A stretch of DNA of 64,000 nucleotides from an uncultured Pseudomonadales bacterium (lineage in GTDB: Bacteria > Patescibacteriota > Microgenomatia > UBA1400 > PJMF01), in the NCBI GenBank assembly GCA_964406075.1, contig CAYOQI010000003.1, forward strand, positions 140,718-204,717. The letters run 5' to 3'. Numbering within the stretch: position 1 is the first letter of the stretch; each line of letters begins with the position of its first letter. This document shows positions 20,676 through 59,476 of this stretch, in pieces. Below the pieces are notes generated by a model. The model did not search any database and had not been told where the DNA came from. It saw only the letters and a list, made by a program, of their open reading frames with translations. The position numbers and the translations under genes are program-made.

Positions 20676-21602
20676 TTACAACGAATGGGAAAACTTTGTA
20701 ATTTTGTTTAGATTTCCTTTAAATTGTCCTTTTTCTATTCCTAAAGAAGTTGAGACGAGAAAAGCATATATAACCAAGGCTTTGTATTGTTTTCGAGCAC
20801 TCCGACTGGAAAGTAGATTTTGAATATAATTTGAACTGAGAAAATTTTCACGAAATTCTTTTTCTTGCCACGTTGCTACGGTAACGTTGGCTATTTCCAT
20901 GAGTGGGTTTGTTAGTACTGATAATTGAAAATCAATAATGAAGATCTGTTGATTTTTTAACAGCACATTGTCAGCAAATCCCAAGTCTCGATGAACAAAA
21001 ATTGAATCTTGGTTTTTCAGTAATTCTGGTAAACCAAGATAAAAAGGAATAATCATCTTGATGATACTTTTGAGATTTATTACTCCACTGAGAACAACTT
21101 TCAGTAAGTAATAATGAAATCGTACAAACAATGGAAAAATTCCCAATTTCATAATGTTATGGGGTTCTTTTTTTAGGAATGGACTAAGCAGGTTGAAGTA
21201 CTGAATAACTCTCAACAGAACTTCGGATTTTTTATTTTGTGATTCATAATCTAAAATTGAACCTTCGATGTACTCAGTCAGAAGAAAAGCTTTTGTATCT
21301 GAAAGTTCCTGATGCACCATTTGAGGAATATTTATTTCAGGGAAAGTGGTTGTAATTTCAGTTGAATGCTTTTTATAGACAGATGAAAAACTTTTGTAGA
21401 CAGCGATCTCGTTCACAATCCATGTATAGTTTTGATCTTTATGTTCACCTGTCCAGAGTTTACAAAGATATTTTTTTTTGTTTGAATCTTCGTATAAAGC
21501 AAAGTGATACGCACTTCGTGGTGCCAAATCATGCAACACTTCGACTAACGTGTAGTGAGTAATACTCTTCGGAAATAAATCAGATTTAGTTGATTTTGTC
21601 AT
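20676..21602 (-). CDS. Aminoglycoside/choline-kinase-like phosphotransferase
   Basis: Catalytic loop VHRDLGFADNVLL followed by IIDFQLS, i.e. the HxDxxxxN...D pattern of the APH fold. Confidence 0.55.
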   Translation of the reverse strand: MTKSTKSDLFPKSITHYTLVEVLHDLAPRSAYHFALYEDSNKKKYLCKLWTGEHKDQNYTWIVNEIAVYKSFSSVYKKHSTEITTTFPEINIPQMVHQELSDTKAFLLTEYIEGSILDYESQNKKSEVLLRVIQYFNLLSPFLKKEPHNIMKLGIFPLFVRFHYYLLKVVLSGVINLKSIIKMIIPFYLGLPELLKNQDSIFVHRDLGFADNVLLKNQQIFIIDFQLSVLTNPLMEIANVTVATWQEKEFRENFLSSNYIQNLLSSRSARKQYKALVIYAFLVSTSLGIEKGQFKGNLNKITKFSHSL

Positions 21603-24600
21603 ACGCTTTGGCAGCTGAATTTGAAGCGTTCATGTAGACAGTCTGTTCTTTTTTTTCTTTGACTGATCTGAGGATGATACTTAACAGTAGTTGTCCACTT
21701 TTATTCCAACTAAATTCTTGTGCCCATTCAATAGCACTTTTACTCATTGATTTTCTTAATCGTGAGCTTTTAAACAGTAAATCAATAGCTTCTGCAAATG
21801 CTTTGCTATCGTTTACTTTGACCAATAAACCTGATTTTCCATGAGATACGGAATCTTGTAGGCCTTTTACTTTTGAGGCCACTACTGGTGTTCCAGAAGC
21901 GTTGGCTTCAATCACCGTGATTCCCCATCCTTCAATTGTGGATGGTTGAACAGCAACCCAACTTTTTGCAAAAAGTGTGGCTTTTTCTTTGTCTTCAATA
22001 TTCTGTAAAAATTTGACTGAGTTATTAATTTTCAATTGCTCTGCAAGCTTTTGTAAAGTTCTCAAACTTTCACCTGAACCTGCGATAGTGAATGTCGCTT
22101 TCGGAAAATTTTTCAAAACTAAAGCAAAGGCTTTTAATGCGATATCAATTCTTTTATATGGCTTCAATCGTCCGACATATACTAAAGAAGGTTCCACGGT
22201 TTTTTCTTTCGGGTGAAAAAGTGATTGATTGATACCAGGACTGATGACTTGAATTGAAGACCTCTCACCAAGTCCAAGGTCAAGAATTTCTTGCTTTGAT
22301 GATTCAGAAACCGTAATGATGTTGTGATGTTTATATAAGGAAGTCATCAAATCGCTTTCAATGATTGAAGCGATTTCAGACAGAGGGAATTTTAACTGAG
22401 ATCGAAATATTTCCTGATGCACGTGGTGAATCAACAAAAAGATTGGTTTTTTTACATACAGTGGTGTAAGAAATGGGATACCATTTTCACTGTCGATAAT
22501 GACGTCAAAGGTATTTCTGAATCTTAATACGTAATATAAAAACGCCCAAACGTAGACTGTATAGAATCCACCTCGACGAACTATTTGAATACCATCAATC
22601 ACTTCATTACGTGGATTTCTTCCGTCATTTCCGCAAAATATCGTAACTTTATGCCCTTGTCCAACGAACTCTTTTGCAATCTCATGAATGTACACTTCTG
22701 CTCCACCTGACCAGACATGTTTGATATCTCGCCAGTTGAAAATAAGAATACGATATGAATCTTTTTGTTCTAACGTTCGTGGTTGAAATTTTAATCGCCC
22801 GAATAAGAGATCTCCAAAGTCATAGAAATTTTGGAGGGGAGTTTTCAATTGTTTGTAATATACATGCAGTAACGACAGGATGACTAAGTTCAATGTCCCA
22901 CTAACACACATCGTAATAGTGACTTCAGTTAGCGAGTTATGAAAAAGCATTAATGCTATTACTTGGATGAGTGCAATAAAAAATGGTGCTACTGCGAAGA
23001 GATATTGTTTTTTAGCTAGATGAAATTGGACAATTGCTTGTGACAATGTATAGAGCAAAATACCAAAGCTGTAGAAAGGAAGCAGTGTTCGGACAGCATT
23101 AATCTTCACACCTAAAAATGCAGGTGCAAGTAAAGGCACCGCAAGTCCGAAAACAATAAATGCAATCGTACTTAAAGTTGTCGCCAACACAATTAGTTTT
23201 TTAAATATGTCATCAGATGAAAGCCCTTTGCCTTCTCTAAATGCGGTGATTGGGAGGATAAAACCAGTAATCAAACTGCCTGTAAAAAAGATCATTTTCC
23301 CCAGCAGTCCCATGATTCCATAAAGACCTGTATCTTCCAGACTCAAATAATGAGCAACGATAATGTTATCGAGACTGAAAAAAGCAATGGAAGATAGACT
23401 AGCAACCAACGTGAGTAAGAAGAATGTTTTTGGTAGTCGTAACTCCTTGTGAGGGACTGGGGCAATTTCACCTCTACGTGCAAAGAAATATGAGATAACT
23501 GTGACGCTAATGAATGCAATCGGAATACAGAGATATGCAAGATATTCAACTTGTGAAAAACCAAACAGTAACGCTGAGAGTAAACGAATCAGCGGTTGTG
23601 CGAGGGTGGTAATTGCAATTAGTCCAAAAGAGAGCGAGCCTTTTAAGTACCCTTGATTAATTGCCAACACTGCTCCCACCATCAAAATTGGACTGAAAAA
23701 CAACATTGGAAAAATAGAATCAAAACCGAAAAAATTAGTAGTGAATGGAAGTAAAATGAGCCAGATGATCGTGAGTATCGATGAGAAAAGCAGAAAACGA
23801 TTTTTTTGATACAGCCAAAAATTTCTAGCAGCACTTTGATTTACTTTTCCAAATAGAGTCGCAGCCTGATGATTAATGGTCATCGACAGTGCACCAGTAA
23901 AGATTGAAAAAATACTCAGGATACTCAGATAGGTATTAAAAATAGCAAAGTTAGTTAGATTTAGTGCATGACCGAGGAAAAAGTTTGTCCCCATGTTTAA
24001 AAAATTTGCAAGAATTGTGGCAATCACGAGTAACGTTCCAGTCCGGTACTTGCCCAGCATAATATCTCTAAATATTGTTTTAAAACTTCGCTTACGTTGT
24101 AATGTCTGTCGAAATTGAAAAAATTCTCTAATCTTCGTGAATGAAAAACCGAACAGTTTTGTTTTTTCGACTCGTTGTGTTTGTTCGCGAGCTTCTGTGA
24201 GTACGGCTGCTAATACTTCTTCGGTACCTGCTTCAAGTTCCTCTTTAATTTCTTCTTTCTTTAAATGCAGTCCATGAATAGTTTTTTCCCAGTAATGAGG
24301 TTTTACTATCAACTGATACAGAGCAATGATTGAAGCTACACTTACCATCAGCCAATAAATTGGAATCAAGAAAATCCACTTCATCAGTGCCCAGTGCTCT
24401 CTTTTGGCAACACCAATCATGTAGTAATAAATAAAGAGGAAATTTCCAAACAAGAGTGAAATGACCGCCATGTAGAAAACAATGGCGGGATAGAAGGTTT
24501 CAATGGTAGGTCCGACATACTGATAGAGTGCAAAGTATGAAATCGTCAACAACCACATGATAGGATTGATCAACATGAACGCGATTTTTCCACCGACAAT

Positions 24601-26448
24601 CAGTTGAAATAACAAGGCGTGAAGGCCATTTTTACGGAAAAAATACACAGGATTGCGCATGTGAATAAGGTAGGTTTGCATGTACCCTTTGATCCAGCGT
24701 GAGCGTTGTCTGAGCCAATTTTTCCAGTTACTGTTCGCCTCTTCTAAAGTAACAGAATCAATAATTGCTGTTTTAAATCCACGTTTGAACAGACGCACAC
24801 CCAGATCACAATCTTCTGTCACGTTAAACGGATCCCACCCTTTCAACGTCAGTAAGTCCTTTGTTTTAAAGTGATTACTCGTTCCACCAAGTGGAAGGGT
24901 TGTTTGAATGGTTTGTAATCCTGTTAGAACAACATCAAACCAGAGTGAATACTCAGCCGTGAAAAATCGAGTTAAAAGATTTTGATGAGGATTGTGGTAG
25001 TTCAGTTTAGCTTGTAAACAGACCACATTTTGTGGAACTTGCTGGAATCCCAGATACACTTTCTTTAATTGAAGTGGATCTGGAATATCTTCTGCGTCAT
25101 AAATAACCAAGTACTCCCCTTTTGCATGACTCAGTCCAAAATTACAAGCTTTCGGTTTGGTTTTTGGTTGAGAATCAGGAACGACTAATATTCTGAAATA
25201 CGAAGGTAAATTGAGTTTTTTGGCAACTTCGATTGTTTGTTTATCATCTTCTTCCAGCAACAACATGACATCGAGCTTGTTTTTTGGCCAATCCATTTTC
25301 TCTATCGCTTCTAAGAAATATGGAAGGATATTTGCTTCTTTGTATAAAGGACACATTATTGAATAAATGGGAAGGTCTTTGTCTTGGAGAGCTTGAATAC
25401 TTTCATCATTCGGAGAAATCTCTGGAGGAGAATGTAGACTTCTCATAATAATAAACAAATTAAAAATCACATCAATAAAATAAATGAAGCTGAGAACTGC
25501 GACGACAATTTTTAAGGTAGTGATAGGTCCAAGAATTAGTCCAAGAATCAAAGACATAAATACCATCAGAATGAAGAGTTGCTGGTGATTGGTGAATGTT
25601 TGTGCAGCAGAGAGATGAGGATGAAGTGTAGTATGGGTGATGAAACGCTTGTGGCGTTTGACGATTCCAGCTCCGAGCATTGATGTTGAATCGGGGCCAG
25701 ATACAGATTTTACCTGAGGAGCAAGCTTATACTTAATAGCTTGTCCACCAATTTCTGTTACTGATTGCCAGAGATTAATCTTTGATTGTCCTGATTTTCG
25801 TGGAGAAAAAGTAATTGGAACTTCCCCAATTTCGAAGTTTAAACCTCGAGAGGATTCGAGTAGCGGAATGTCGATTGTCCAACCAGAGACACTGTCTGAA
25901 TCGAGCTGTTCAATAATCTCTCTTCTAAAAACTTTTAATCCCGACTGAACATCACAAGTAAAACCAAACAGCAATCGACCAAAAATAAATTGAAATCCTT
26001 TACTCAGTAATACTCGGACCTTGGAATGATGGGATGAGACTCTTTTTGCTACTGCCATCCCCTTCTCTTTGGCAACTTCGAGTAATGCTGGAAGTGCTTC
26101 AGGAGGATACTCCAAATCTGCATCAATCATTCCGACGAATGGTGCGTTCCCTTGTTTAGCTCCTTGGATAATTGAGTAAGCTTTTCCAAGTCGGCCTTTT
26201 TTTCTGAGAACAGTTAATGGATACTTTTTAGAGAGTTGAAGTAAAACTTCATACGAATTATCGGTGGATTTATCATCAACAGCGATAACTGTATAGATTT
26301 TTTTATCATTCTGAAAAGCAATATCAATTCTCTTCAAAAGAGATGGGAGGGAGGGAGCTTCGTTTCTTACTGGAAGGATGATATCAATGACTGCGGGCAT
26401 ACACGGCAAACATAATTTGTGTATGTGGTCAAAAAAGAGCACAGACAC
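21586..26448 (-). CDS. 1620-aa fusion of a DPM1-like GT2, a processive membrane GT2 synthase, a MOP/Wzx-type flippase-like domain and a GT4
   Basis: aa ~20-240 carry ILPVRNE...DDKSTDNS...DADLEYP. aa ~360-700 carry CPLYKE...YDAEDIP...QRSRWIKG (Q-x-x-RW) with TM helices. aa ~790-1210 hold about 12 TM helices of the polysaccharide-biosynthesis type. aa ~1225-1600 carry GT4 with EGWGITVIEANASGTPVV. It is one uninterrupted ORF. Confidence 0.75.
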   Translation of the reverse strand: MSVLFFDHIHKLCLPCMPAVIDIILPVRNEAPSLPSLLKRIDIAFQNDKKIYTVIAVDDKSTDNSYEVLLQLSKKYPLTVLRKKGRLGKAYSIIQGAKQGNAPFVGMIDADLEYPPEALPALLEVAKEKGMAVAKRVSSHHSKVRVLLSKGFQFIFGRLLFGFTCDVQSGLKVFRREIIEQLDSDSVSGWTIDIPLLESSRGLNFEIGEVPITFSPRKSGQSKINLWQSVTEIGGQAIKYKLAPQVKSVSGPDSTSMLGAGIVKRHKRFITHTTLHPHLSAAQTFTNHQQLFILMVFMSLILGLILGPITTLKIVVAVLSFIYFIDVIFNLFIIMRSLHSPPEISPNDESIQALQDKDLPIYSIMCPLYKEANILPYFLEAIEKMDWPKNKLDVMLLLEEDDKQTIEVAKKLNLPSYFRILVVPDSQPKTKPKACNFGLSHAKGEYLVIYDAEDIPDPLQLKKVYLGFQQVPQNVVCLQAKLNYHNPHQNLLTRFFTAEYSLWFDVVLTGLQTIQTTLPLGGTSNHFKTKDLLTLKGWDPFNVTEDCDLGVRLFKRGFKTAIIDSVTLEEANSNWKNWLRQRSRWIKGYMQTYLIHMRNPVYFFRKNGLHALLFQLIVGGKIAFMLINPIMWLLTISYFALYQYVGPTIETFYPAIVFYMAVISLLFGNFLFIYYYMIGVAKREHWALMKWIFLIPIYWLMVSVASIIALYQLIVKPHYWEKTIHGLHLKKEEIKEELEAGTEEVLAAVLTEAREQTQRVEKTKLFGFSFTKIREFFQFRQTLQRKRSFKTIFRDIMLGKYRTGTLLVIATILANFLNMGTNFFLGHALNLTNFAIFNTYLSILSIFSIFTGALSMTINHQAATLFGKVNQSAARNFWLYQKNRFLLFSSILTIIWLILLPFTTNFFGFDSIFPMLFFSPILMVGAVLAINQGYLKGSLSFGLIAITTLAQPLIRLLSALLFGFSQVEYLAYLCIPIAFISVTVISYFFARRGEIAPVPHKELRLPKTFFLLTLVASLSSIAFFSLDNIIVAHYLSLEDTGLYGIMGLLGKMIFFTGSLITGFILPITAFREGKGLSSDDIFKKLIVLATTLSTIAFIVFGLAVPLLAPAFLGVKINAVRTLLPFYSFGILLYTLSQAIVQFHLAKKQYLFAVAPFFIALIQVIALMLFHNSLTEVTITMCVSGTLNLVILSLLHVYYKQLKTPLQNFYDFGDLLFGRLKFQPRTLEQKDSYRILIFNWRDIKHVWSGGAEVYIHEIAKEFVGQGHKVTIFCGNDGRNPRNEVIDGIQIVRRGGFYTVYVWAFLYYVLRFRNTFDVIIDSENGIPFLTPLYVKKPIFLLIHHVHQEIFRSQLKFPLSEIASIIESDLMTSLYKHHNIITVSESSKQEILDLGLGERSSIQVISPGINQSLFHPKEKTVEPSLVYVGRLKPYKRIDIALKAFALVLKNFPKATFTIAGSGESLRTLQKLAEQLKINNSVKFLQNIEDKEKATLFAKSWVAVQPSTIEGWGITVIEANASGTPVVASKVKGLQDSVSHGKSGLLVKVNDSKAFAEAIDLLFKSSRLRKSMSKSAIEWAQEFSWNKSGQLLLSIILRSVKEKKEQTVYMNASNSAAKAYDKIN

Positions 26449-28874: not shown

Positions 28875-30779
28875 TTAGTTTGATTTAATTTGAAAGAATT
28901 TTCGCTTCCCCACTTTAACGACATCGAGATTTACGGCTGCTACTTTAAAGTATGGATCGTTTGGATGTTCTTTTTGTCTATTTTTATATGTTAACTCAAT
29001 TGCCCCTTGATCAATCAGTCGACGTAACTCAGATTTACTTGCTTTTGGCTGAATCTCGACAAGAAGTTCAAGCAAAGTCAGTGATTGATCCTTGAGTTTT
29101 ATAATTGGGATATCATCCGGAGCTTCTTTTTTCTGAACAGTTTTTTCAAAAAACTGAGCGGCGGCTAAGGCATCAGCTTGAGTGTGATACATCTTGGTGA
29201 TACTGAATGCCAACTTCTTTTTAAATATCAGTGGGTTCATTCCTTTTTCCATTTCCTCTTTCATTTTTTCGATTGAAGGCTGAGGCTCATCTGTTAATAC
29301 TGTGAAATACAACAGAATCATGTCATCAGAAATTGACATCAATTTCCCGTACATGTCGTTTGGAAGCGCAGTCAATGCGATAAAGTTTCCAAAGCTTTTA
29401 CTCATTTTCCGACCATCAGTTCCAGCAATAATTGGAGTTGTTAACACCCATTTTTCTCGATTATTAAAGCTTTTTTGAAGTTGTCGACCCATCATCATGT
29501 TAAAAGTCTGATCATTGCCACCAATCTCAAGATCAACATCCAGTGCAACAGAATCATAGCCTTGCAGTAACGGGTAAATAATTTCATGACCGAAAATCGG
29601 TAAATTATTTTTCAATCGATCCTGAAACATATCTCGTTCAATCAATTGTTGAACGGTTGTTTGTGCCAGCAACTTCACCATATCAACATATGTCAGCTTA
29701 TCGAGCCATTCACCGTTGTAGACAATCTTAATTTTTGAAAAATCTAGTATTTTAGCTGCTTGTTCTTTCCAATCTTTAAAATTATCAAGAATTGCTTGAT
29801 CCGTCAGCATCGGTCGACTACTATCTCTGCCTGTAGGATCGCCAATTCGTACCGTTCCATTTCCGACCAACAAGAAAACCTCATGACCGAGTTCGGCAAA
29901 TTGTTGGAGTTTCCTGAGTACTACTGAGTGACCAAGCGTGAGCAGTGAACCAGTGGGATCAATTCCTAAATACACTTTGATCTTCTTTTTTTTCATCAAC
30001 GTTCGCAACGCATTTTTGGTGGGAAGAACCTGTGTGACGCCGCGAGTTAAAACTTCTTCCAGACGCAAATCTTCTGGCGACAACTGAGTTTTTATGTCAA
30101 TCTCACACTCTGGTGATGTACGAGAGACGATAAACGATTCTACTTTTGCCCCAAAGTTTTTTTCTAAATCAGTTTTCACTTTTTGCATTAAATCAATTAA
30201 TTCTTGCTCTGGAATTCCATCGAACGTATCGATGGGAATGAAAATGGAGTTGGTTGTTTCTGTCACTGCGGATGTTTTACCTTGTCGCCAAATCCAGTTT
30301 CGAGTTAACACCGTTTTTCCACTGGAGTATGCGAAAAAATGCTCCTCCATAAATTCGGGAAATTCTTCTCCTCGTGCAAAAAACGCATCTTCAGTATTTG
30401 TTCTTCTAACTTCGATGTCATCTTCTAACCACTCGATATCATGGGCTCCAATCGGAACTGAATGTTGGATAGAAATGGCATTAAAGTAATCAACTAGAGG
30501 TGAAATTCTTGGGAGTTCTTTTTTCTCAGTCAGTCTTTCGAGTAATGCGACGTGAGACGGTTTCACTGTATTTGCCATCCCATGTTTAGTAAACGCTTCA
30601 GTCCATTCTTGAAATGGTCGATTTTGTACTGTCGGTAGTTGCTGAGATTGTTCGACTTCTTTTGTTAACTTCGCCACAAAAGATTGAGCTTTTTTTTGAT
30701 CAATTCTTGTAGCAACTAACACTCCAATTTTGTAATTGGGAAAAAGTTCAAAGATTTCTGGTGAGACTGAAAATTTCAT
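28875..30779 (-). CDS. tyrS: Tyrosyl-tRNA synthetase fused to an N-terminal B3/4 (PheRS-beta editing-like) domain
   Basis: The C-terminal ~380 aa carry DPTGSLLTLGH (HIGH-type), IGDPTGRDSSRP, KMSKS and a C-terminal S4-like segment (KSELRRLIDQGAI). The N-terminal ~240 aa carry PLVDYFNAISIQHSVPIGAHDIE, which resembles the B3/4 motif seen in this window's own PheT (VIDITNYITHELGHPCHAFDYD). Confidence 0.8.
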   Translation of the reverse strand: MKFSVSPEIFELFPNYKIGVLVATRIDQKKAQSFVAKLTKEVEQSQQLPTVQNRPFQEWTEAFTKHGMANTVKPSHVALLERLTEKKELPRISPLVDYFNAISIQHSVPIGAHDIEWLEDDIEVRRTNTEDAFFARGEEFPEFMEEHFFAYSSGKTVLTRNWIWRQGKTSAVTETTNSIFIPIDTFDGIPEQELIDLMQKVKTDLEKNFGAKVESFIVSRTSPECEIDIKTQLSPEDLRLEEVLTRGVTQVLPTKNALRTLMKKKKIKVYLGIDPTGSLLTLGHSVVLRKLQQFAELGHEVFLLVGNGTVRIGDPTGRDSSRPMLTDQAILDNFKDWKEQAAKILDFSKIKIVYNGEWLDKLTYVDMVKLLAQTTVQQLIERDMFQDRLKNNLPIFGHEIIYPLLQGYDSVALDVDLEIGGNDQTFNMMMGRQLQKSFNNREKWVLTTPIIAGTDGRKMSKSFGNFIALTALPNDMYGKLMSISDDMILLYFTVLTDEPQPSIEKMKEEMEKGMNPLIFKKKLAFSITKMYHTQADALAAAQFFEKTVQKKEAPDDIPIIKLKDQSLTLLELLVEIQPKASKSELRRLIDQGAIELTYKNRQKEHPNDPYFKVAAVNLDVVKVGKRKFFQIKSN

Positions 30780-51511: not shown

Positions 51512-54253
51512 ATGGAAGAAGAAAGAAAAAAACAGAAAGAGAGCGAGATTTCCCAAACTCTTGAATCTTTTAGTCGTGGTGAACGGAATGATTTCATCCG
51601 TATTGGGAAACGTTTAGCCGAATATCTTCACGAGAATAATATCCGTCGGATTGTTTTTTTGGATGCAGGGGCGCGATCTGCCTATCTTTGTCTCCTAGAA
51701 TCCTGGCATCGATTATATCCTCAAGAGACACATCCGGAAATTTACTTTATTAATCCACTGGGGCTAAATACCCAGGAGATGATGGATGATGTAGTGCCAC
51801 CAAAAAAACTGTCTCGTATTTCAGTGCTGAGTGCAAAACACGCAATGAATGAAGTTTCAGCTGAAGATTCGAAGAAAGGTGGAGAAACGACTCGTGCCGG
51901 GAGAACAAAAGTAGAGGTACAAGAAGAATTTGAGTCTACCTACCGTCAATTGACTAAAGATAAGGAGTCCTCTCTTTTAGTGTTTGATACATGCCAACAT
52001 ACTGGTTTGTCGACAGATCCTATACTTCGAACTTTAGAACAAATTGGATTCAAAGATGTGCAGCTTGGATTAGCTTCGCAAGTCAATGATCTCACAACAA
52101 CACAACCAGATTTTATAGCGCTGAAAGGTGAAGCCCACGGTCGTTGTTACCCTTTTGATAGAGAGAGTCTGATTAAAAAACGCTGGGACTCGGTTCTTTC
52201 TCTGCCTGTTACTTCTGCCAAAGAAAAACACAAAGGTATTGTTTTACGTCAAACAATTAAAAGAATTTTTGATGTTCAATGGGATGTGGTAGTAAAACCA
52301 GAGCCTGTAATGAAGTTAGAGCGTCTGGGCTTTCCGAATGAAACTGTGATTACTCGCCCACCAAGTGTAGATCTTTTTTATGCTGGAAAAGAATCAAATT
52401 CTTTTTTACCAACCGAAATTGCAACTCATCCAACATTGATCGAACAAGCGAGAGAACGACGGATAATTCACGCTCGTTTGCATAAAGTTTTTACGAAAAT
52501 TCCTGATGTGAGAATGGGTTGGAGTACCGCTTTAGAGCAAGGTTTGATCATAGAGGAAGATATTCAAGAGGTATATCAAGAATTATTGCGTTTTCTCCAA
52601 AGTGATCCCAACAATGCTCGTATCCTGCTTTACCTCCCATTTGAGATGCTACTTTCTAGCTCTGAATTAAATCATCTTGATGACAGCATTGGAACAGAAT
52701 TTCAGAAAATTTATCACCATAAATGGTTACGGTTGCTCTTTGAAAACGAGCCGAGAGTCAATTTTGTAGATGGAGATATTCCCGAAGTAGAACTTGGGAG
52801 AGGTGAGCCGGTTATTGTCCATAAAGCAGCTCATATGATTCCTGAACTTCTCTCCAAGAAATGGCTGAGTATTTCGTATGTCATTGCTATTTTAGAGATA
52901 GCTGAAGATGCAGGATTAGAAAGTGGGATTTTTGAGGGGTTGCAGGCGGCATATCGTCGGAATCTTTTAACAATAAGTGAGATTGATGCTCTTCGTCATT
53001 CTACGCGATCTACTGTAGTAGAGTTTGCTCATATGCTCGATTTAAAAAATTTAGGAAGTTCTGGCCCAATTGTTGAAGAAAAGCCACCTTTTCATCTTGA
53101 AACATTTTTAGCTGGTTTTGAGGAAGAACACCAACTCCATCAGGATATGTATAGTCAGGATTCCCCTTTTGTCCAACAAATGACGAAAGCTCGATATCGT
53201 TGGGAAAAAAAGGATCGTTATGAAAAACTATTGAATCAAGATGCGCTGAAACTTGTACCGGCGCTTCAGGATGATATTCTGGCAGTTCAGGATATTCTTC
53301 CTGATTCCGATCATGTAGATCAAGAAAGATTTTCTCGTTTACTCATAAAAAGTATTTTTTTGACCACAGAATCATTGGCCAATGAAAATAAAGATCAGGC
53401 AAAGACTTTTTTTGAAAAACATACGGCATTTTTGGAAAAAGCATGGAATGTTGAATCGCTCACTGTCCGAAACGACCTTTATAGTGGGTGGTCCCATCTT
53501 ATTCACCTAGACATTCTTGCACCTGATTATGTCCATCAATTTAATCTTCAGCTTCCAATTATCGATACACCTCAATCTGCTGATCTAGAGAAATTAGCAA
53601 AAAATGAATTGCAAGGAGTTCAACATGCACTTAAACTCATGGAAAGCGATGATGTTCTTCAACAAAACTTTTATCCAGTTTTTGTGTTGTGGGGATCAAG
53701 AATAAAAGGGTATCCGACTTTGGAATCTGATACAGATTTTATTGGTTTTCAAAAAGAAGCCACTGCGAATGATACTCGTTCAGTTGAAGATTCCGAGGCG
53801 ACAATTGCACAGGCTGTAGAAGGTAAAGATAGTTTATTGAAATTTTTAGTACAAGAAGAAAATGGTAAGTACAAGATTATGCACTTACCTACTCCAAAAG
53901 AAGGGTATATAAGTCCAACAGTTACTCAGCCTTTATTGGGAGCAGTGTGGATAGGAGATCAAGAAATAGTAAAAAAAATACAAGGATCAGTGATTGAAAG
54001 ATTTGTCAATTTAGAGCGATTTGGAGAAAAGAAGGAAGAAGTTCGATCACGATTATTACGAAATCTGGAAGGTGAAACTTTGCAAGCTCGTCTTCTCCAC
54101 CGTGGATATCGATTTTTCTATGCGGATCAAATACCAGCTGAAATAAAGCAAGAAAAAGCTATTGATGGAGATAGTGCGTTTTGGGATCCAGGGTACCGCA
54201 GAATGGCAAGCCAATTATTTCTCAGTCGGGTCTTTTTGCCAGATCTTAGTTAA
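51512..54253 (+). CDS. 913-aa orphan protein with an N-terminal PRTase-like motif and a C-terminal Pol-beta-type nucleotidyltransferase motif
   Basis: SLLVFDTCQHTGLS is PRPP-loop-like. LWGSRIKGYPTLESDTDFIGF matches the GS-x(n)-D-x-D minimal NTase signature. Confidence 0.45.
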   Translation: MEEERKKQKESEISQTLESFSRGERNDFIRIGKRLAEYLHENNIRRIVFLDAGARSAYLCLLESWHRLYPQETHPEIYFINPLGLNTQEMMDDVVPPKKLSRISVLSAKHAMNEVSAEDSKKGGETTRAGRTKVEVQEEFESTYRQLTKDKESSLLVFDTCQHTGLSTDPILRTLEQIGFKDVQLGLASQVNDLTTTQPDFIALKGEAHGRCYPFDRESLIKKRWDSVLSLPVTSAKEKHKGIVLRQTIKRIFDVQWDVVVKPEPVMKLERLGFPNETVITRPPSVDLFYAGKESNSFLPTEIATHPTLIEQARERRIIHARLHKVFTKIPDVRMGWSTALEQGLIIEEDIQEVYQELLRFLQSDPNNARILLYLPFEMLLSSSELNHLDDSIGTEFQKIYHHKWLRLLFENEPRVNFVDGDIPEVELGRGEPVIVHKAAHMIPELLSKKWLSISYVIAILEIAEDAGLESGIFEGLQAAYRRNLLTISEIDALRHSTRSTVVEFAHMLDLKNLGSSGPIVEEKPPFHLETFLAGFEEEHQLHQDMYSQDSPFVQQMTKARYRWEKKDRYEKLLNQDALKLVPALQDDILAVQDILPDSDHVDQERFSRLLIKSIFLTTESLANENKDQAKTFFEKHTAFLEKAWNVESLTVRNDLYSGWSHLIHLDILAPDYVHQFNLQLPIIDTPQSADLEKLAKNELQGVQHALKLMESDDVLQQNFYPVFVLWGSRIKGYPTLESDTDFIGFQKEATANDTRSVEDSEATIAQAVEGKDSLLKFLVQEENGKYKIMHLPTPKEGYISPTVTQPLLGAVWIGDQEIVKKIQGSVIERFVNLERFGEKKEEVRSRLLRNLEGETLQARLLHRGYRFFYADQIPAEIKQEKAIDGDSAFWDPGYRRMASQLFLSRVFLPDLS

Positions 54254-54259
54254 AATTTT

Positions 54260-54306
54260 CCTTTCGTCCTTTTGGACTCATCAGTAGAGATACACATCTC
54301 TAAAGG
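54260..54306 (-). ncRNA. Hammerhead ribozyme core (type III topology) with a very short stem III
   Basis: The minus strand reads CCUU|UAGAGAU-GUGU-AUCUCUA-CUGAUGA-GUCC-AAAA-GGAC-GAAA-GG. All invariant core nucleotides are present (C3-A9, G12-A14, A15.1/U16.1, H17=U). Stem I is 7 bp, stem II is 4 bp, and stem III is only 3 bp locally. Confidence 0.7.
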
Positions 54307-54340
54307 TTAGGGCAAGAGTTTTATCTCCTTCTTGCCCTAA
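54307..54340 (-). other. Perfect 11-bp hairpin immediately 5' of the hammerhead
   Basis: On the minus strand UUAGGGCAAGA-AGGAGAUAAAAC-UCUUGCCCUAA. Confidence 0.6.
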
Positions 54341-54357
54341 ATATACTATCAATACGA

Positions 54358-54786
54358 TTAATTCTGTTTGGCCCAGTCCATGAGGGTTTTTAAGATGCTC
54401 CCCATGCCTTTCACCAGCAGGTTGGCTTTACTGAGGAATGTTACATCATCCCCAAATAGAGCGTCTGCTAGTTCGACCAAATCGTCGATGCCTTTCACGC
54501 TCACCAAGTATCCGGCCCGCGCATCTTTAGTAAAGACGTTTGGCGGGGTGATCGCTCGGAGCAGTAGAACTTCCTGTGACGCAAATTGTTGCCAATCAAA
54601 ATCCGAATAGAACATATGTTCGTTCATCCGGTTTCGGTTTTGAATGAGCCACATTCCGATTCGGGCGACGCTTCCTTCACGCAGATTGCGCTCAGGAAGC
54701 ACGATTGAAAGGAAATCTGCCAAGAACTGGCTAGAGTTCGTCGTCGTGAAACCCATTGCCAGTGCCGGGCAGGCCCCCCTCTCCAA
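54358..54786 (-). CDS. Island orphan protein F (up to 142 aa)
   Basis: A high-GC ORF. The first two Mets overlap the end of gene E by 56 or 26 nt, and an alternative start at 54654 gives 98 aa. No motif was recognised. Confidence 0.45.
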   Translation of the reverse strand: MERGACPALAMGFTTTNSSQFLADFLSIVLPERNLREGSVARIGMWLIQNRNRMNEHMFYSDFDWQQFASQEVLLLRAITPPNVFTKDARAGYLVSVKGIDDLVELADALFGDDVTFLSKANLLVKGMGSILKTLMDWAKQN

Positions 54787-55777
54787 TGTTACGAGTGCGG
54801 CGGCGAGGCATGACTTCCGGGCGACGCGGCTGACGACTGAGCTGAACCTTCATAGTGGGCAATGCGCCCATACGGGCCGCCTGATTGTAAGCGGTAGTAG
54901 CAGCCGGGAATTCGCCGCGCAGCGCCAAACGTTTGACACCAGGTTTGATGTGATCGCGCAACCAGGCCAATTTGCTCTCATCCCCAGGGGTTACCTCACG
55001 GGTTTGAGTGGCGGCCAAGAAGACAACCTGACGAACATCGAGTGGAACGCCATTCCAGGAAATGCGGCCAGTGCCAATTCCACTCTTCGGTAGCGCCTGT
55101 GTTGGGTTCACCGGGTCGGCATCATAGATGCTTTGCGCATCGACGCCAACTTTGATGACTTCATAGCTGTTGCTATCAGGGTCATACCAGACACCATCCA
55201 CAGCAGGCGGAAAACCTTCTTCCAGTGACATGATATACGCCACTGTCTGTTCGGCGTTAACGCTACCATCATCATTGATGACTACGATAGGAGTACCCAG
55301 TCGACGTTCGATCTGCCCCATAACCAGGTAAGGCATGTTGCGGATCTTTGGACTGTATCCGCCGACGATCTGAGGAACTGGTAGCATTGAACTCATGTCG
55401 AAGTCGCCAGCACCAGCGCCCATCGCGCTGCCCATGTTGCCCATGAGCAAAAAGGTCATGAGTGTACCCTGATCCATACCCAGGGTGTTAGCATAGGAGC
55501 TAACCGCCGCCGGAGTTGGGTTTGCGCCTTCAGCAATTTCTTCTTCTGTGACTTGGTCGGTAGCTGGGACGGCTGGCATGTTGTAGTGGGAGACGATCTG
55601 AGCAGCCTTGATTGGTGTCAGCTTGACTTTGTGTTTGGCAACAGTCAACATTTCTGTGGTGACATGTTGCATACTTTCCGCGTCCTCTGCGCCCAGGGCT
55701 GCAATCGCATCGATTTGCGAGGCAGTTAACCCGAACATATTGGACAAGTCTTCCCGCAATTCATTCTTCATTGTCAT
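54731..55777 (-). CDS. Island orphan protein E (348 aa) with an Arg-rich C-terminal tail
   Basis: A long high-GC ORF. It has a Gly/Met/Ala low-complexity stretch and a C-terminal RQPRRPEVMPRRRTRN. No family was recognised. Confidence 0.55.
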   Translation of the reverse strand: MTMKNELREDLSNMFGLTASQIDAIAALGAEDAESMQHVTTEMLTVAKHKVKLTPIKAAQIVSHYNMPAVPATDQVTEEEIAEGANPTPAAVSSYANTLGMDQGTLMTFLLMGNMGSAMGAGAGDFDMSSMLPVPQIVGGYSPKIRNMPYLVMGQIERRLGTPIVVINDDGSVNAEQTVAYIMSLEEGFPPAVDGVWYDPDSNSYEVIKVGVDAQSIYDADPVNPTQALPKSGIGTGRISWNGVPLDVRQVVFLAATQTREVTPGDESKLAWLRDHIKPGVKRLALRGEFPAATTAYNQAARMGALPTMKVQLSRQPRRPEVMPRRRTRNIGEGGLPGTGNGFHDDEL

Positions 55778-55878
55778 GATACTGTTCCTTTGCCTTTCAT
55801 CACTTAGGATGTTATATTTTGCCCAAATGGGCGCTTCTTTTTGGTCAAGTGTGCCACCATCGCGAAATGCGTGACCTA

Positions 55879-55921
55879 TATGGTGCAGACTAAGGAAAAA
55901 TTATCCTCACTCTGCACCATA
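55879..55921 (-). promoter_or_regulatory. 11-bp perfect hairpin in the 5' leader of gene E
   Basis: TATGGTGCAGA at 55879-55889 pairs with TCTGCACCATA at 55911-55921. The 21-nt loop contains a nested AGGA/UCCU pair. Confidence 0.5.
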
Positions 55922-56080
55922 CAGATCTTAAAAAACTTTTTGTATTGATAGTATGAACAAGAATAATAACTGCTTATTTAGTTCGTAACGAACATAAGCC
56001 GATAGTATTCTTGGTTGTTAACGAGCTCTAATGCGAGCATTAGACCGTATAGTATAGCATTTTTATGCTATAAGATAAGT

Positions 56081-56155
56081 CTGTTCTCTTTCGTCCTTTA
56101 CTCTGCGTAATGCAGAGGGACTCATCAGTACGGATTTTATCCGTAGAGAGAGCAG
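56081..56155 (-). ncRNA. Hammerhead ribozyme, type III topology, complete
   Basis: The minus strand reads CUGCUCUCUC|UACGGAU-AAA-AUCCGUA-CUGAUGA-GUCC[CUCUGC-AUUAC-GCAGAG-UAAA]GGAC-GAAA-GAGAACAG. Stem III is 9 bp with one C/A mismatch, stem I is 7 bp, and stem II is extended. The cleavage triplet is CUC (NUH). Confidence 0.85.
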
Positions 56156-56296
56156 GGACGGTTGCTTGATCTTGGGGAAGTTCGAAGAAATAAGTGTCGT
56201 GTGACACTAGTCCAAACTCACCGATCAAGTCACCGTCTTCTCTTTCCGGGAGGAAAGAGCCTGCTTGCTATAAGTAAAGAGTGTTTTATTTTTTGA

Positions 56297-56662
56297 TTAG
56301 AAGCGTTCTATCACATTCCAGCGCATTTGCAGACTTCTCAGACTGCTTTGTTGAGCTTGATGATAAATTGCCAGGGCAGTGTATTCTGCGTCCGACGATT
56401 GCATTTCGAGGCTGCTGAAGATGCGTTGCATATACTCCAGGTGATTCGTTTTCTCTGCCGGATCGTACATTGTAAGCCCAGCATCAATTCGTTGAACCAT
56501 AGTCTCGTCTAAGCCAATCTGTTTGGCGAGGTTTTTGAGCAATAGTTGCTTCATGGTCTGATCCGGTCCAATTTGTGAAACCAGTGATTCTATCAAAGGA
56601 TCATTGGCATGAATCAGGAGGCGAAGTAAGTGGATGCGTTGTGCTAACGTTTGTGTTGACAT
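56297..56662 (-). CDS. Island orphan protein D (121 aa, helical)
   Basis: An ORF starting 15 nt after the PurA-like gene. No motif was recognised. Confidence 0.5.
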   Translation of the reverse strand: MSTQTLAQRIHLLRLLIHANDPLIESLVSQIGPDQTMKQLLLKNLAKQIGLDETMVQRIDAGLTMYDPAEKTNHLEYMQRIFSSLEMQSSDAEYTALAIYHQAQQSSLRSLQMRWNVIERF

Positions 56663-56677
56663 GAGATTTCCTCTTTC

Positions 56678-58114
56678 TTAGGTGAATAGATATTCGTAGC
56701 CAGGAACGACTTCCGCTTGTTTGACTTCGGGGCCATGACTAGTCATGACGACTGGAATTCCGATTTCGGCTTCGACTCTTTTTAAAAGAACTTGTTCGAG
56801 AGTTTCGGCTTTGGTCGGAGTGACATGCGTGATTACGGGTCGACAGTGATTTAGAAGTTGCGTTAAGCGCATCTGATGGGCCAAATGGGCATCATCGCGG
56901 GTATCAGGATGAACCCGAATAGCAACGATTCTTCCCTGCTTGATCACAAAATACTGATCGAGATCGTTGGGAACTTCACCGACAAATCGGTAGGCATTGC
57001 AAATGGGCCATTCGTCCCAACCCTCTAGATCATCAAGATGACTCATCGCGAACCCTTGGTACTCGTTCTGACCGTTTACACAGTCCATGCTGTACCGTAG
57101 AGCGACGAAATCAAGTGGACCAATCCGAAATGGACCGAGCCAACTTGTTTTATCATTGTCTCGATCTGGATCAATGGCATCACCGAAATCATCATCTTGT
57201 GTAACTAGCGGTCCATTTCCATGTCGATGTGCAAATGGCCGTAACGCTAAAATGCGAACGAAGCGATAACCCTTACCGACTTTACATGTCTGACGTAAAA
57301 TTTTGATCAGGGTAGCCCCGGTTGGATCAACTTGACTCACGTGTGGAGCAAAGCCGTAGTAAGGATGCAATAAAATTCCATGCGATCCTTCTACCACGAT
57401 ATTTCCGGCTGCTAAAATTGCTTGTTTGAATTCATTATCATTAATGATTCGAACCCATTCGGTAAGATTTTGCATTGTTCGTGCAGTTGCTTCAACGACA
57501 CTACTACTCCGTAACAATTCCATTTCTTCCCAGGCAGTTCCAATATCTTCAAGGTCAAATTCTCTGATTAAGGCTTCCGCCTGCTTCAGTTTCTGTTGAC
57601 GCACCTTTTCAATTCTTTTTGTTAAAAGTGCCAGATTTGAGAAATCACCTGCTCGGATTGCTAAGTCTGGGTAGGATTTGCTGTCGGAGATAGCTTCACC
57701 GACTCCCATTCCAACCGTTCCTTTTTTGGTTCCAGTTAAATCTCGAACCTTTTCTCGGAAACGACTGATCGCACCATGAAATGGTGTGATGGAAAGACAT
57801 CTGTGATGAATCTGAATTCGTGCGAACATATTCTCAGCAAGACCGAGTTGTTCAAGTTCCTCAGCCTCATCGAAAAGCAAAAATGGATCGATGACCATGC
57901 CTGCTAAGATTGTGTTTACATCAGGAAAAAAGCTGCCACTGCCGTAATGCGAAAAGGCGTGTGACAACCCGTTGGAAAGTACGTAATGAGAACCATTACA
58001 GCCCCCATATCGTACGACCGTTTTTGCATCGATAAGCTTGCAAGCTTCAGCAGCAAAACGGCCTTTGGTTTCTTGCCCCCAAAGTGGGCCGCCCATTGTT
58101 ACAATGATTGGCAT
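56678..58114 (-). CDS. Divergent adenylosuccinate-synthetase (PurA)-fold protein
   Basis: By-eye alignment to E. coli PurA gives these matches: GGPLWGQETKGR vs GTQWGDEGKGK; VVRYGGCNGSHYV vs VVRYQGGHNAGHT; KGTVGMGVGEA vs IGTTGRGIGPA; VEGSHGILLH vs FEGAQGTLLD; HRHGNGPLVT vs TRVGAGPFPT; MSHLDDLEG vs LTKLDVLDG; TSHGPE vs STGPDR. Confidence 0.7.
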   Translation of the reverse strand: MPIIVTMGGPLWGQETKGRFAAEACKLIDAKTVVRYGGCNGSHYVLSNGLSHAFSHYGSGSFFPDVNTILAGMVIDPFLLFDEAEELEQLGLAENMFARIQIHHRCLSITPFHGAISRFREKVRDLTGTKKGTVGMGVGEAISDSKSYPDLAIRAGDFSNLALLTKRIEKVRQQKLKQAEALIREFDLEDIGTAWEEMELLRSSSVVEATARTMQNLTEWVRIINDNEFKQAILAAGNIVVEGSHGILLHPYYGFAPHVSQVDPTGATLIKILRQTCKVGKGYRFVRILALRPFAHRHGNGPLVTQDDDFGDAIDPDRDNDKTSWLGPFRIGPLDFVALRYSMDCVNGQNEYQGFAMSHLDDLEGWDEWPICNAYRFVGEVPNDLDQYFVIKQGRIVAIRVHPDTRDDAHLAHQMRLTQLLNHCRPVITHVTPTKAETLEQVLLKRVEAEIGIPVVMTSHGPEVKQAEVVPGYEYLFT

Positions 58115-58148
58115 TGGCTTTTCCTTAGGAAATTAGAAGTGGGTCTCG

Positions 58149-58174
58149 ACATGTCGAGACCCACAGAACGAAAC
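58149..58174. promoter_or_regulatory. Perfect 26-nt palindrome between island genes B and C
   Basis: GTGGGTCTCGACATGTCGAGACCCAC is fully self-complementary. Confidence 0.6.
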
Positions 58175-58180
58175 GAAAGG

Positions 58181-59476
58181 TTAGAGTTGCTCCCACTCGA
58201 TATCATCGTCGTCGGCCAGATTATCTGGTGTTGTTGGCGATGATTGGATGTTGACTACTCCTGATTTCTTTTTGTGCGCCGAACCGACGACAGCGTCTGC
58301 GATCGACGTAAATTGAGTTACGAACTCGGATTTCGGGTCGGGTAACCCTTGCTCTTGCCAAGGTGTATACAGAGGATGATTGATGTCCCACTCATTGACC
58401 GGATGGTCAAATTCTGATCCCATCGCGGGATACTGAACTTTGGGTTGAGCGCCTCTTTCGACGTTAGCATCTACGATACACTTCACGATCCGTTGTGCGT
58501 CCGGTGCGCCCATCGAGTAGTTGGAGCCGCGTGTTGCAGTCATGATGAAGTCTGCGGTATTTGATTCAGTCGCGTCGCTGTTTTCTGTCCAATAGACGAC
58601 TGCGGCTTGCATAGCAGCGGTATACCGAGGATTGGGATTGTAGATTACATGACCTTTCCCTAATACTCGAGTCCACCAGGCATCAACCTGTGGTCTGTCA
58701 CGATGAACGTTGAAGAAAAATGTATGCATTTTCTTCCCAAGTTCTCGACCCAGCTCGACGGTTGCAATGTCGCTTTGAATATCTGCGCCGAGTTGCTGAC
58801 GAACTAACCATGCTTCTACGGTATTGCGTCCTTCTTGATCACTGATTAAAAAGCCATAAGGAAGAAGTCCATACCTGAGGCTCCAGGCTTCTGTTCGCCA
58901 CCACCACTGTGCCAATACAAGTTGACCTTCTTCGATGCCGTCTTTCCCGTCCATGCCGGGAATTAACAGCTTGTTCTGATCTAAGATTTTGTCCTCATCG
59001 GCCTCAATCATAGTAGCCAGAACAGCTACACTTCGGCCATAGGATAGTCGTCGGCCTTTCTCATCAGGATATGTATCGTCATCTCGGTCTTGGAACAGCA
59101 TGACATTAACCTGGTCGTTCTGATCGGGATGCACCACATGAGTGAAACCCACATATGACCCTGTTTGCCTGAATGATTCTTCATATTCCTTTTCAAATGA
59201 GTATGTTGAATCTACGGCCAGAGATGAATATCGAGCGACGCCATACTTCAGGGTGAATCGCCAAATAGCTTGCGTCTTATCGACTTCGTATGAGTTGCGC
59301 GAACTTCGTGGGCCACTGAGCGGATCGGCGAATTCGTGCAACTTGCCCGTGATTTGCACTTGTTGTTGAGCTTGTTGACTAATGTGAACGGCTCCACGGC
59401 TGGCGGCAGCAGAGGCTTTTTGTTCATAAGCCTTGCTGTTTACTTCCTTAGCGGTAGTACTTGTTGAACATGCCAC
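58181..59476 (-). CDS. Island orphan protein B (431 aa) with an acidic C-terminus
   Basis: A long high-GC ORF. It has a Trp-rich segment (QWWWRTEAW) and the C-terminus DDDDIEWEQL. No family was recognised. Confidence 0.55.
   Translation of the reverse strand: MACSTSTTAKEVNSKAYEQKASAAASRGAVHISQQAQQQVQITGKLHEFADPLSGPRSSRNSYEVDKTQAIWRFTLKYGVARYSSLAVDSTYSFEKEYEESFRQTGSYVGFTHVVHPDQNDQVNVMLFQDRDDDTYPDEKGRRLSYGRSVAVLATMIEADEDKILDQNKLLIPGMDGKDGIEEGQLVLAQWWWRTEAWSLRYGLLPYGFLISDQEGRNTVEAWLVRQQLGADIQSDIATVELGRELGKKMHTFFFNVHRDRPQVDAWWTRVLGKGHVIYNPNPRYTAAMQAAVVYWTENSDATESNTADFIMTATRGSNYSMGAPDAQRIVKCIVDANVERGAQPKVQYPAMGSEFDHPVNEWDINHPLYTPWQEQGLPDPKSEFVTQFTSIADAVVGSAHKKKSGVVNIQSSPTTPDNLADDDDIEWEQL

Follow-up and report, generated by a model that had tools for sequence, protein, structure and literature searches.

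In a 64,000-nucleotide stretch of contig CAYOQI010000003.1 (hereafter the window, from whose first letter all positions are counted), the minus strand at 54340-54260 reads as a hairpin of 11 perfect base pairs with a type III hammerhead ribozyme immediately after it, in the spacer between two convergent genes. We propose that this focal element is functional and belongs to a large hammerhead class whose stem III is short and which abounds in Patescibacteria and phage-like contigs, and that it cuts read-through RNA so that the upstream messenger RNA (mRNA) is left with a hairpin at its end; we put the probability of this reading at roughly three in four. It is carried by the anatomy of the sequence and its secondary structure, the conservation of the element in orthologous loci, the covariation seen across the class, and the coupling between the positions of hairpin and cleavage site.

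The focal hammerhead has the full catalytic core, with a stem I of 7 bp, a stem II of 4 bp and a stem III of 3 bp. Its parts, in the order of the RNA, are the following.
54307-54340, minus strand: upstream hairpin, UUAGGGCAAGA-AGGAGAUAAAAC-UCUUGCCCUAA, with 11 perfect pairs (UUAGGGCAAGA/UCUUGCCCUAA), a 12-nucleotide (nt) loop and no gap to the 5′ strand of stem III
54303-54306, minus strand: 5′ strand of stem III and cleavage site, C16.3-C16.2-U16.1 (54306-54304) and U17 (54303), numbered from the alignment to the class model R1 (see below)
54285-54302, minus strand: stem I, UAGAGAU-GUGU-AUCUCUA, 7 bp with a 4-nt loop
54278-54284, minus strand: catalytic core strand, CUGAUGA, corresponding to C3-U4-G5-A6-U7-G8-A9
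54266-54277, minus strand: stem II, GUCC-AAAA-GGAC, 4 bp with an A-rich tetraloop, for which the class consensus is NAAA
54260-54265, minus strand: GAAAGG, comprising the core bases G12-A13-A14 and the 3′ strand of stem III, A15.1-G15.2-G15.3 (GAAA 54265-54262, GG 54261-54260)
54254-54259, minus strand: AAAAUU, an A/U-rich 3′ tail that separates the ribozyme from the complement of the convergent gene's stop codon

The invariant core is present without deviation (CUGAUGA at 54284-54278, GAA at 54265-54263), A54262 pairs with U54304 as A15.1-U16.1, and position 17 is U54303, a base other than G. The bond predicted to be cut follows U17 and joins 54303 to 54302, and the triplet CUU obeys the NUH rule. 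Stems I and II of the three-way junction are capped by loops, while stem III is open and built from the 5′ and 3′ ends. Loop 1 (U-GUGU-A) agrees with the class consensus U-G-N-G-U-R, more narrowly with its form U-GUGU-R, and loop 2 (AAAA) with NAAA; small conserved loops of this kind would be in keeping with a tertiary contact between loops 1 and 2. The 11-bp hairpin is present in both the minimum free energy (MFE) and the centroid folds of the focal RNA. Stem III consists of A15.1-U16.1 and two G-C pairs only, after which A15.4 and A15.5 face A16.4 and A16.5, mismatched. Additional stem III pairing, either between the 3′ tail (AAAAUUUUAAC) and GUAUAU on the 5′ side of the hairpin or in a bulged UUUU register, gave nothing convincing by eye or in RNAfold. 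An earlier note on this DNA had described a hammerhead with an intact core, a minimal stem III (3 bp, then A/A mismatches) and a perfect 11-bp hairpin directly 5′ of it, and the minus-strand letters agree with this description base for base. The distances that it gave, 7 nt from the stop of the 913-amino-acid (aa) gene and 52 nt from that of the minus-strand gene, also hold, the stop codons being at 54251-54253 and 54358-54360, so that the element lies between convergent genes.

The 913-aa protein encoded by the convergent gene has only two distant relatives that we could find, at the loci L037 and L038, each 42% identical. Both loci have the gene layout of the window, in which a long gene runs towards a minus-strand unit that comprises a small gene, one of 350 aa, a gap and then a PurA-like gene, and in both a hammerhead lies in the convergent, tail-to-tail spacer. 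In L038 the hairpin GGGCGGAU-loop-AUCCGCCC is followed by CU-GUCU-C, with the site after the last C, then by an identical stem I, core and stem II and by GAAA-GACA, giving a stem III of 5 bp and a CUC site. In L037 a 16-bp hairpin precedes AACCU-U, with the site after the last U, a stem I with one base changed and GAAA-GGUU, which also gives a 5-bp stem III, with UU in place of the A.A mismatches of the focal tail. The 41 nt from stem I through GAAA-G are identical between the window and L038, while the spacer outside the ribozyme is barely alignable. The stem III sequences differ and yet pair (CCU/AGG in the window, UGUCU/AGACA in L038, AACCU/AGGUU in L037), and the hairpin, although changed in sequence, retains its position and its pairing. 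The window and L037 have U17 and the CCUU site in common. A second hammerhead at 56.1 kb of the window, which we call the partner, is kept as well, at 6070-6143 in L037 and 6956-7013 in L038, and rpsB-tsf lies within about 2 kb of the L038 locus. This pattern of conservation rules out chance and is a strong argument against a decaying copy, a possibility that the earlier note had raised: the ribozyme has kept its place in relatives whose flanking protein is only 42% identical, and the changes in stem III and hairpin are compensatory. Covariation in homologous loci, for which the note had proposed to look, is found in L037 and L038, as well as class-wide for stems I, III and II.

In L037 (4109-4211, minus strand) an insertion of about 51 nt with two A/U-rich hairpins separates stem II positions 10.2 and 10.3, while the core, stem I and the 5-bp stem III are undamaged. 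The extra sequence could have come from a small inserted element or could have been added for regulation.

To describe the class we used as a query the 23-mer CUGAUGAGUCCAAAAGGACGAAA, which is the exact core and stem II of the focal copy. Exact matches are present in 36 viral contigs of IMG/VR and at least 120 stretches of GTDB genomes, compared with a chance expectation, by arithmetic, of about 0.02 matches in 596 Gb. Among the matches listed, 97 of the 108 taxon-named genome stretches (90%) belong to Patescibacteria; by record title, 62 are from Saccharibacteria, 35 from other lineages of the Candidate Phyla Radiation (CPR) and 11 carry non-CPR names. After removal of duplicates, the matches listed gave 152 copies of type III layout, which are the base of the class counts that follow. 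Stem I has 7 bp in 129 of them, with a loop that is mostly GUGU or GAGU and an invariant U before it, the contiguous length of stem III has its mode at 5 bp, and the cleavage site is NUC in 78% and NUU in 14%.

The covariation was measured in A1, a gap-free alignment of 107 copies that leaves out the focal locus and its orthologues. The copies had been selected for a paired stem I, and the query dictated their core and stem II, so that stem III is the sole free test in this alignment. It is paired in 100% of copies at 16.2, 98% at 16.3 and 97% at 16.4, with up to six pair types, in 71% at 16.5 and at background level beyond, and its covariation score is 0.654, compared with 0.17 for shuffles and at most 0.12 for slid partners. 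Only four pairs of stem III are conserved in the class. Copies found by the model without the 23-mer also show covariation in stem II (GUCC/GGAC, GCUC/GAGC, GGCU/AGCC, GUCA/UGAC, GCCG/CGGC), while retaining the NAAA loop 2 and a core that varies at N7 only. The traits of the focal copy that look defective, a short stem III and a neighbouring hairpin, are the norm of the class, within which the focal copy stands at the short end.

Most copies of the class lie 20-70 nt upstream of a start codon, and about 21 of 118 genome copies are in a tail-to-tail context according to crude open reading frame (ORF) calls, so that the class occupies leader and trailer positions alike. In other CPR relatives a hammerhead directly precedes the PurA-like gene (L168 6203-6266, L169/L170 6102-6176 and L167 6146-6203, all on the plus strand). 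Two of these, L168 and L169, have a stem III whose 3′ strand (GAAAGGGAUCC and GAAAGGUUU) shares bases with the Shine-Dalgarno region and runs right up to the AUG, and cleavage with product release could unmask the ribosome-binding site there. Separately, UAGAGAUGUGUAUCUCUA, the stem I of the focal copy, is found letter for letter in the unrelated contigs L158, L162/L164/L166 and L163/L165 with other stem II or III sequences, which may point to a preferred stem I sequence or to horizontal spread of the ribozyme.

Scoring with covariance models, which the earlier note had envisaged, gave a divided result. At gathering thresholds, Rfam returned only three tRNAs for the whole window, and no hammerhead. 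In E-value mode on 53500-57000, Rfam Hammerhead_3 matched the focal site with 25.7 bits (E = 0.02 in 3.5 kb) in a local match without stem III, and the partner at 56083-56153 over its full length with 38.4 bits (E = 5e-6), likewise below 48.5 bits, the gathering threshold. The class model R1, built without the focal locus, gave the focal copy 69.3 bits (E about 1e-18), which is mid-range for members of the class (about 57 to 79 bits). The seeds of R1 were chosen by the focal locus's own 23-mer, and the independent evidence therefore comes from stem I, the UH site, stem III and the orthologues. A filter-free R1 scan of the window found two hammerheads only, the next match having 14 bits and a broken core and stem II. 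The Rfam threshold caught just 1 of 29 hammerheads that the class model found in 18 CPR loci (L042...L121) and missed the other 28. The failure of the focal copy at this threshold therefore says more about the seed alignment than about the focal RNA. With 1 of 29 caught, routine annotation of CPR genomes will miss nearly all hammerheads of the class. A chance resemblance to the hammerhead consensus could be argued from the Rfam score and from the bare CUGAUGA-N-GAAA pattern, which is not enriched in the window (5 matches, 3.2 expected). Against it stand the complete motif (stem II, the UH site and a stem I of 7 bp that carries the class loop), the conservation in orthologues and the class-model E-value, and we regard its probability as practically negligible.

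The hairpin is coupled to the ribozyme across the class. A hairpin of -7 kcal/mol or lower is found within 60 nt upstream in 106 of the 152 copies, and 80% of these hairpins end 4-7 nt before the cleavage site; the focal hairpin leaves a 4-nt tail (CCUU), at the short end of this spacing. The median MFE of 40-nt segments is -9.4 kcal/mol immediately upstream, -5.1 for the shuffled upstream segments, -7.0 for segments 120 nt further upstream and -2.0 downstream. The coupling is nearly universal in the viral subset and present in about 58% of genome copies. A short stem III and an abutting hairpin are weakly associated (65% vs 44%, Fisher p = 0.016), in a comparison that ignores relatedness and is partly confounded by geometry.

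Twelve copies (L047, L048, L072, L082, L098, L109, L121, L133, L144, L153, L155 and L160), mostly from Saccharibacteria-named records, have instead of the abutting hairpin a shared CUGCUUGU(C), 8-12 nt upstream of the cleavage site, which suggests either a repeated element or a subfamily whose 5′ neighbour differs.

The perfect, palindromic stem of the focal hairpin, which would form from either strand and lies between two stop codons, could also be explained as an independent two-way terminator or stabiliser for the convergent genes, its adjacency to the ribozyme being incidental and most transcripts ending before the ribozyme. Stem-loops in 3′ untranslated regions are known stabilisers in bacterial operons (PMC8219983). 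However, there is no U-tract after the hairpin on either strand (the minus strand continues with CCUUUAGAG, the plus strand with AUAUACUAUC) and the terminator scan gives no call at this site. In addition, the class-wide end at 4-7 nt from the cleavage site in 80% includes same-strand operons, where a terminator would be counter-productive, and the orthologues retain hairpin and ribozyme together. We consider an independent hairpin rather unlikely, and the hairpin may serve the plus-strand gene as well.

Several features weigh against the reading of the focal element as an active, hairpin-assisted ribozyme. A stem III of 3 bp or less occurs in just 7 of the 152 copies, which places the focal copy, with 3 bp, in the lowest 5% of the class, and the 16.4-15.4 pair, kept by 97% of members, is A.A here. 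The focal site is CUU, and U17 is the minority form (14%, compared with 78% for C17). U17 hammerhead sites are in general cleaved more slowly. U17 and U1.1 can also pair with A14 and A13, and the MFE structure thereby extends stem III into the core (CCUUU/AAAGG), which would be an inactive conformer. The Rfam score lies below the gathering threshold (25.7 vs 48.5 bits), the abutting hairpin is missing in about 30-40% of class copies and is therefore not obligatory, and it could serve the two convergent genes independently of the ribozyme. Finally, no same-strand gene lies downstream of the focal ribozyme, which makes the usual leader role of the class inapplicable here.

The weaknesses of stem III and of the site are also what would support a relic, a ribozyme once active and crippled by loss of the fourth stem III pair and by U17, too recently to have decayed; that the inactive CCUUU/AAAGG pairing is the MFE structure, and that the insertion of about 51 nt in stem II of L037 shows the locus to tolerate disruption, can be added in its favour. 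On the other hand, the core is undamaged at every position, as are stems I and II, the 41-nt body matches L038 letter for letter despite 42% protein identity and an unalignable spacer, and U17 with CCUU is common to L037, which makes this site old and retained. The predicted cost of adopting the active secondary structure, from nearest-neighbour thermodynamics, is 1.4 kcal/mol, rank 58 of 149 copies and better than the class median of 2.1, so that these calculations do not mark the focal copy as handicapped. We therefore hold a relic to be unlikely. The weak activity considered by the earlier note is a fair concern in view of the missing fourth pair, present in 97% of the class, and of U17; the abutting hairpin may make up for the short stem III.

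The earlier note had also suggested that the short stem III is helped by coaxial stacking or by a dimer. Help from the adjacent hairpin fits best, since the hairpin is positionally coupled to the site across the 152 copies and a short stem III is the class norm; the dimer is not supported. In the dimeric explanation, the focal copy would be active only as a dimer or in trans, as a double hammerhead like those of avocado sunblotch viroid (ASBVd) and newt satellite RNA, or as a hybrid with the 56.1-kb copy that would let the 1.85-kb RNA between them circularise. In type I hammerheads whose helix III is closed, a very short stem III does drive cleavage as dimers (PMC6155905), and the window has two copies of the same orientation on one transcript. 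Yet the focal stem III is open, with no short palindromic loop to close it, and the copies do not form a tandem but are separated by 1.8 kb. AGAGAAC, the 3′ strand of the 56.1-kb copy, lacks complementarity to AACCU, the focal 5′ strand, and the same is true in L038. Type III hammerheads, moreover, are reported to cleave efficiently as monomers (PMC6155905). The ASBVd and newt RNAs share the very short helix III with the focal copy, but theirs is closed and occurs in tandem, so that two copies build one long helix III, and the focal one is neither. We judge activity as a dimer or in trans to be very unlikely.

The proposed active, hairpin-assisted ribozyme is best followed on the genes around it, which are the following.
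51512-54253, plus strand: convergent gene for the 913-aa protein, with its stop codon (54251-54253) 6 nt beyond the last paired base of the ribozyme
54358-54786, minus strand: 142-aa ORF (132 aa in another call), the last gene of the minus-strand unit, with its stop codon (54358-54360) 52 nt before the ribozyme; its synteny is kept in L037 and L038
54731-55777, minus strand: 348-aa gene of a family widespread in Patescibacteria, forming with the 142-aa gene the block between the two hammerheads
56081-56154, minus strand: partner type III hammerhead upstream of the 348-aa gene, sharing with the focal copy the core and the base of stem II, which is extended here, and having a longer stem III

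On the minus strand, the 348-aa and 142-aa ORFs are enclosed by the two hammerheads, at 56081-56154 and at 54254-54311, a layout repeated in L037 and L038. As the earlier note had stated, the core and the GUCC/GGAC base of stem II are common to both copies. In loop 2 the partner has an inserted hairpin, CUCUGC-AUUAC-GCAGAG, and a UAAA bulge that takes the place of the focal AAAA; its stem III consists of 5 pairs, a mismatch and 3 pairs, no hairpin abuts it, and a terminator-like hairpin lies about 40 nt upstream of it, at 56208-56193.

From these observations we infer self-cleavage, coaxial stacking, protection of the 3′ end and an effect on the convergent gene. Transcription past the 142-aa gene would yield an RNA that folds into the 11-bp hairpin, stem I (7 bp, GUGU) and stem II (4 bp, AAAA), with the three pairs of stem III forming beside the hairpin, which probably stacks on them. 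The RNA would then cleave itself during transcription between U54303 and U54302. The upstream product would be the mRNA of the 348-aa and 142-aa genes, ending in the hairpin and CCUU with a 2′,3′-cyclic phosphate, and its hairpin-capped 3′ end should withstand 3′ exonucleases. With only three pairs to tether it, this product would be expected to leave quickly and not to be re-ligated. The downstream product would be the severed read-through RNA, antisense to the 913-aa gene, with the 5′-OH ribozyme body at its front. Together with the 56.1-kb copy, the focal ribozyme would bracket a two-gene mRNA of roughly 1.85 kb. Both orthologues, like the window, are without a same-strand gene after the ribozyme, and the most economical role is therefore the definition of the 3′ end and the removal of read-through antisense RNA.

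The focal ribozyme is a new member of a known family, and a single locus of this kind is no surprise. Type I and III hammerheads in bacteria were reportedly first described in a study of 2010. Bacterial intergenic and phage hammerheads have been known since 2010-2011, and their biological role is still called open (PMC6155905). With the type III hammerheads of Rfam (RF00008, clan CL00010), which include those of the satellite RNA of tobacco ringspot virus (sTRSV) and of viroids, the focal copy shares the catalytic core, the U16.1-A15.1 pair, the NUH site, the capped stems I and II, the open stem III and the small conserved loops. It differs from them in being part of a bacterial chromosome and not of a circular RNA replicon, and in having a stem III of 3 bp (4-5 bp in its class) with a stable 5′ hairpin abutting.

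In prophages, hammerheads that flank genes or short gene blocks were demonstrated experimentally to cleave polycistronic RNA (Perreault et al. 2011, PMC3088659). As in those clusters, two hammerheads of the same orientation bracket a one- or two-gene block within a longer unit, and the role proposed is alike, the conversion of polycistronic RNA to gene-length mRNAs. However, those cases are mostly of type II and lie in prophages near integrases, whereas the focal locus is found among cellular genes and is conserved across diverged CPR relatives, and the focal copy stands at the end of the unit, facing a convergent gene, and not before a gene. A likeness also exists to the processing and stabilisation of operon RNAs, in which an intergenic cut leaves the upstream segment with a protective stem-loop (PMC4423207, PMC8219983). 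In the focal case, the RNA itself would make the cut, at a constant spacing of 4-7 nt from the hairpin, and would leave 2′,3′-cyclic phosphate and 5′-OH ends instead of RNase products.

In a literature search, which was incomplete, we found no paper that links hammerheads to Patescibacteria or Saccharibacteria, and no description of the concentration of the class in Patescibacteria, of the fixed-distance 5′ hairpin or of the near invisibility to the Rfam threshold. The CPR-wide module of hairpin and hammerhead may therefore be previously undescribed, which we offer as a lead and not as a claim of priority. A minimal stem III with an adjacent hairpin is a recurrent, positionally coupled design, concentrated in Patescibacteria, whose RNA metabolism is almost unstudied, and the conserved copy at an operon end, without a downstream gene, provides a clean test case for a role in 3′-end formation or protection. 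In synthetic biology, insulators of the RiboJ type combine a hammerhead with a designed hairpin to give defined, context-independent mRNA ends. The RiboJ hairpin is placed 3′ of the ribozyme and exposes the ribosome-binding site, whereas the focal hairpin is 5′ and would stay on the upstream product. As a tentative generalisation, possible but less probable than not in our estimate, Patescibacteria and phage-like contigs may use a hairpin-hammerhead punctuation, with very many short-stem-III hammerheads, almost all below the Rfam threshold, that leave the upstream mRNA with a hairpin and a 4-7-nt tail, and the downstream RNA with a structured 5′-OH leader. If this were true, RNA itself would perform in these reduced genomes much of the operon processing and 3′-end definition that is done elsewhere by RNases and terminators, and the focal copy would be the pure 3′-end-forming case, with no gene following.

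The proteins of the locus are without a family assignment: sequence searches of Pfam, PHROGs, NCBIfam and PDB gave no match for the 913-, 348-, 142- and 121-aa proteins. The 348-aa protein has 115 homologues, and those with source names are mostly from Parcubacteria, Ryanbacteria and Pacebacteria; no relatives were found in IMG/VR. We suspected from the tRNAs, the tyrosyl-tRNA synthetase and a clamp loader that the window derives from a jumbo phage, and rejected this origin on the basis of PilM, glycosyltransferases, rpsB-tsf beside an orthologous locus and the CPR-named homologues; a blastn search of 53000-58200 against the phage collection gave no match. The window most probably derives from a Patescibacteria (CPR) chromosome.

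Upstream of the partner hammerhead, the minus strand at 56678-58114 encodes a PurA-like protein of 478 aa, which resembles a divergent adenylosuccinate synthetase (124 bits, compared with the 395-bit cutoff of TIGR00184). In many CPR genomes this gene is conserved beside uncharacterised proteins of about 340-370 aa (here 54731-55777), in a variable gene order. Elsewhere on the minus strand, the tyrosyl-tRNA synthetase ORF (28875-30779) has an N-terminal extension of about 240 aa without a family match, and a 1620-aa ORF (21586-26448) combines GtrB-like and GT4-type glycosyltransferase regions.

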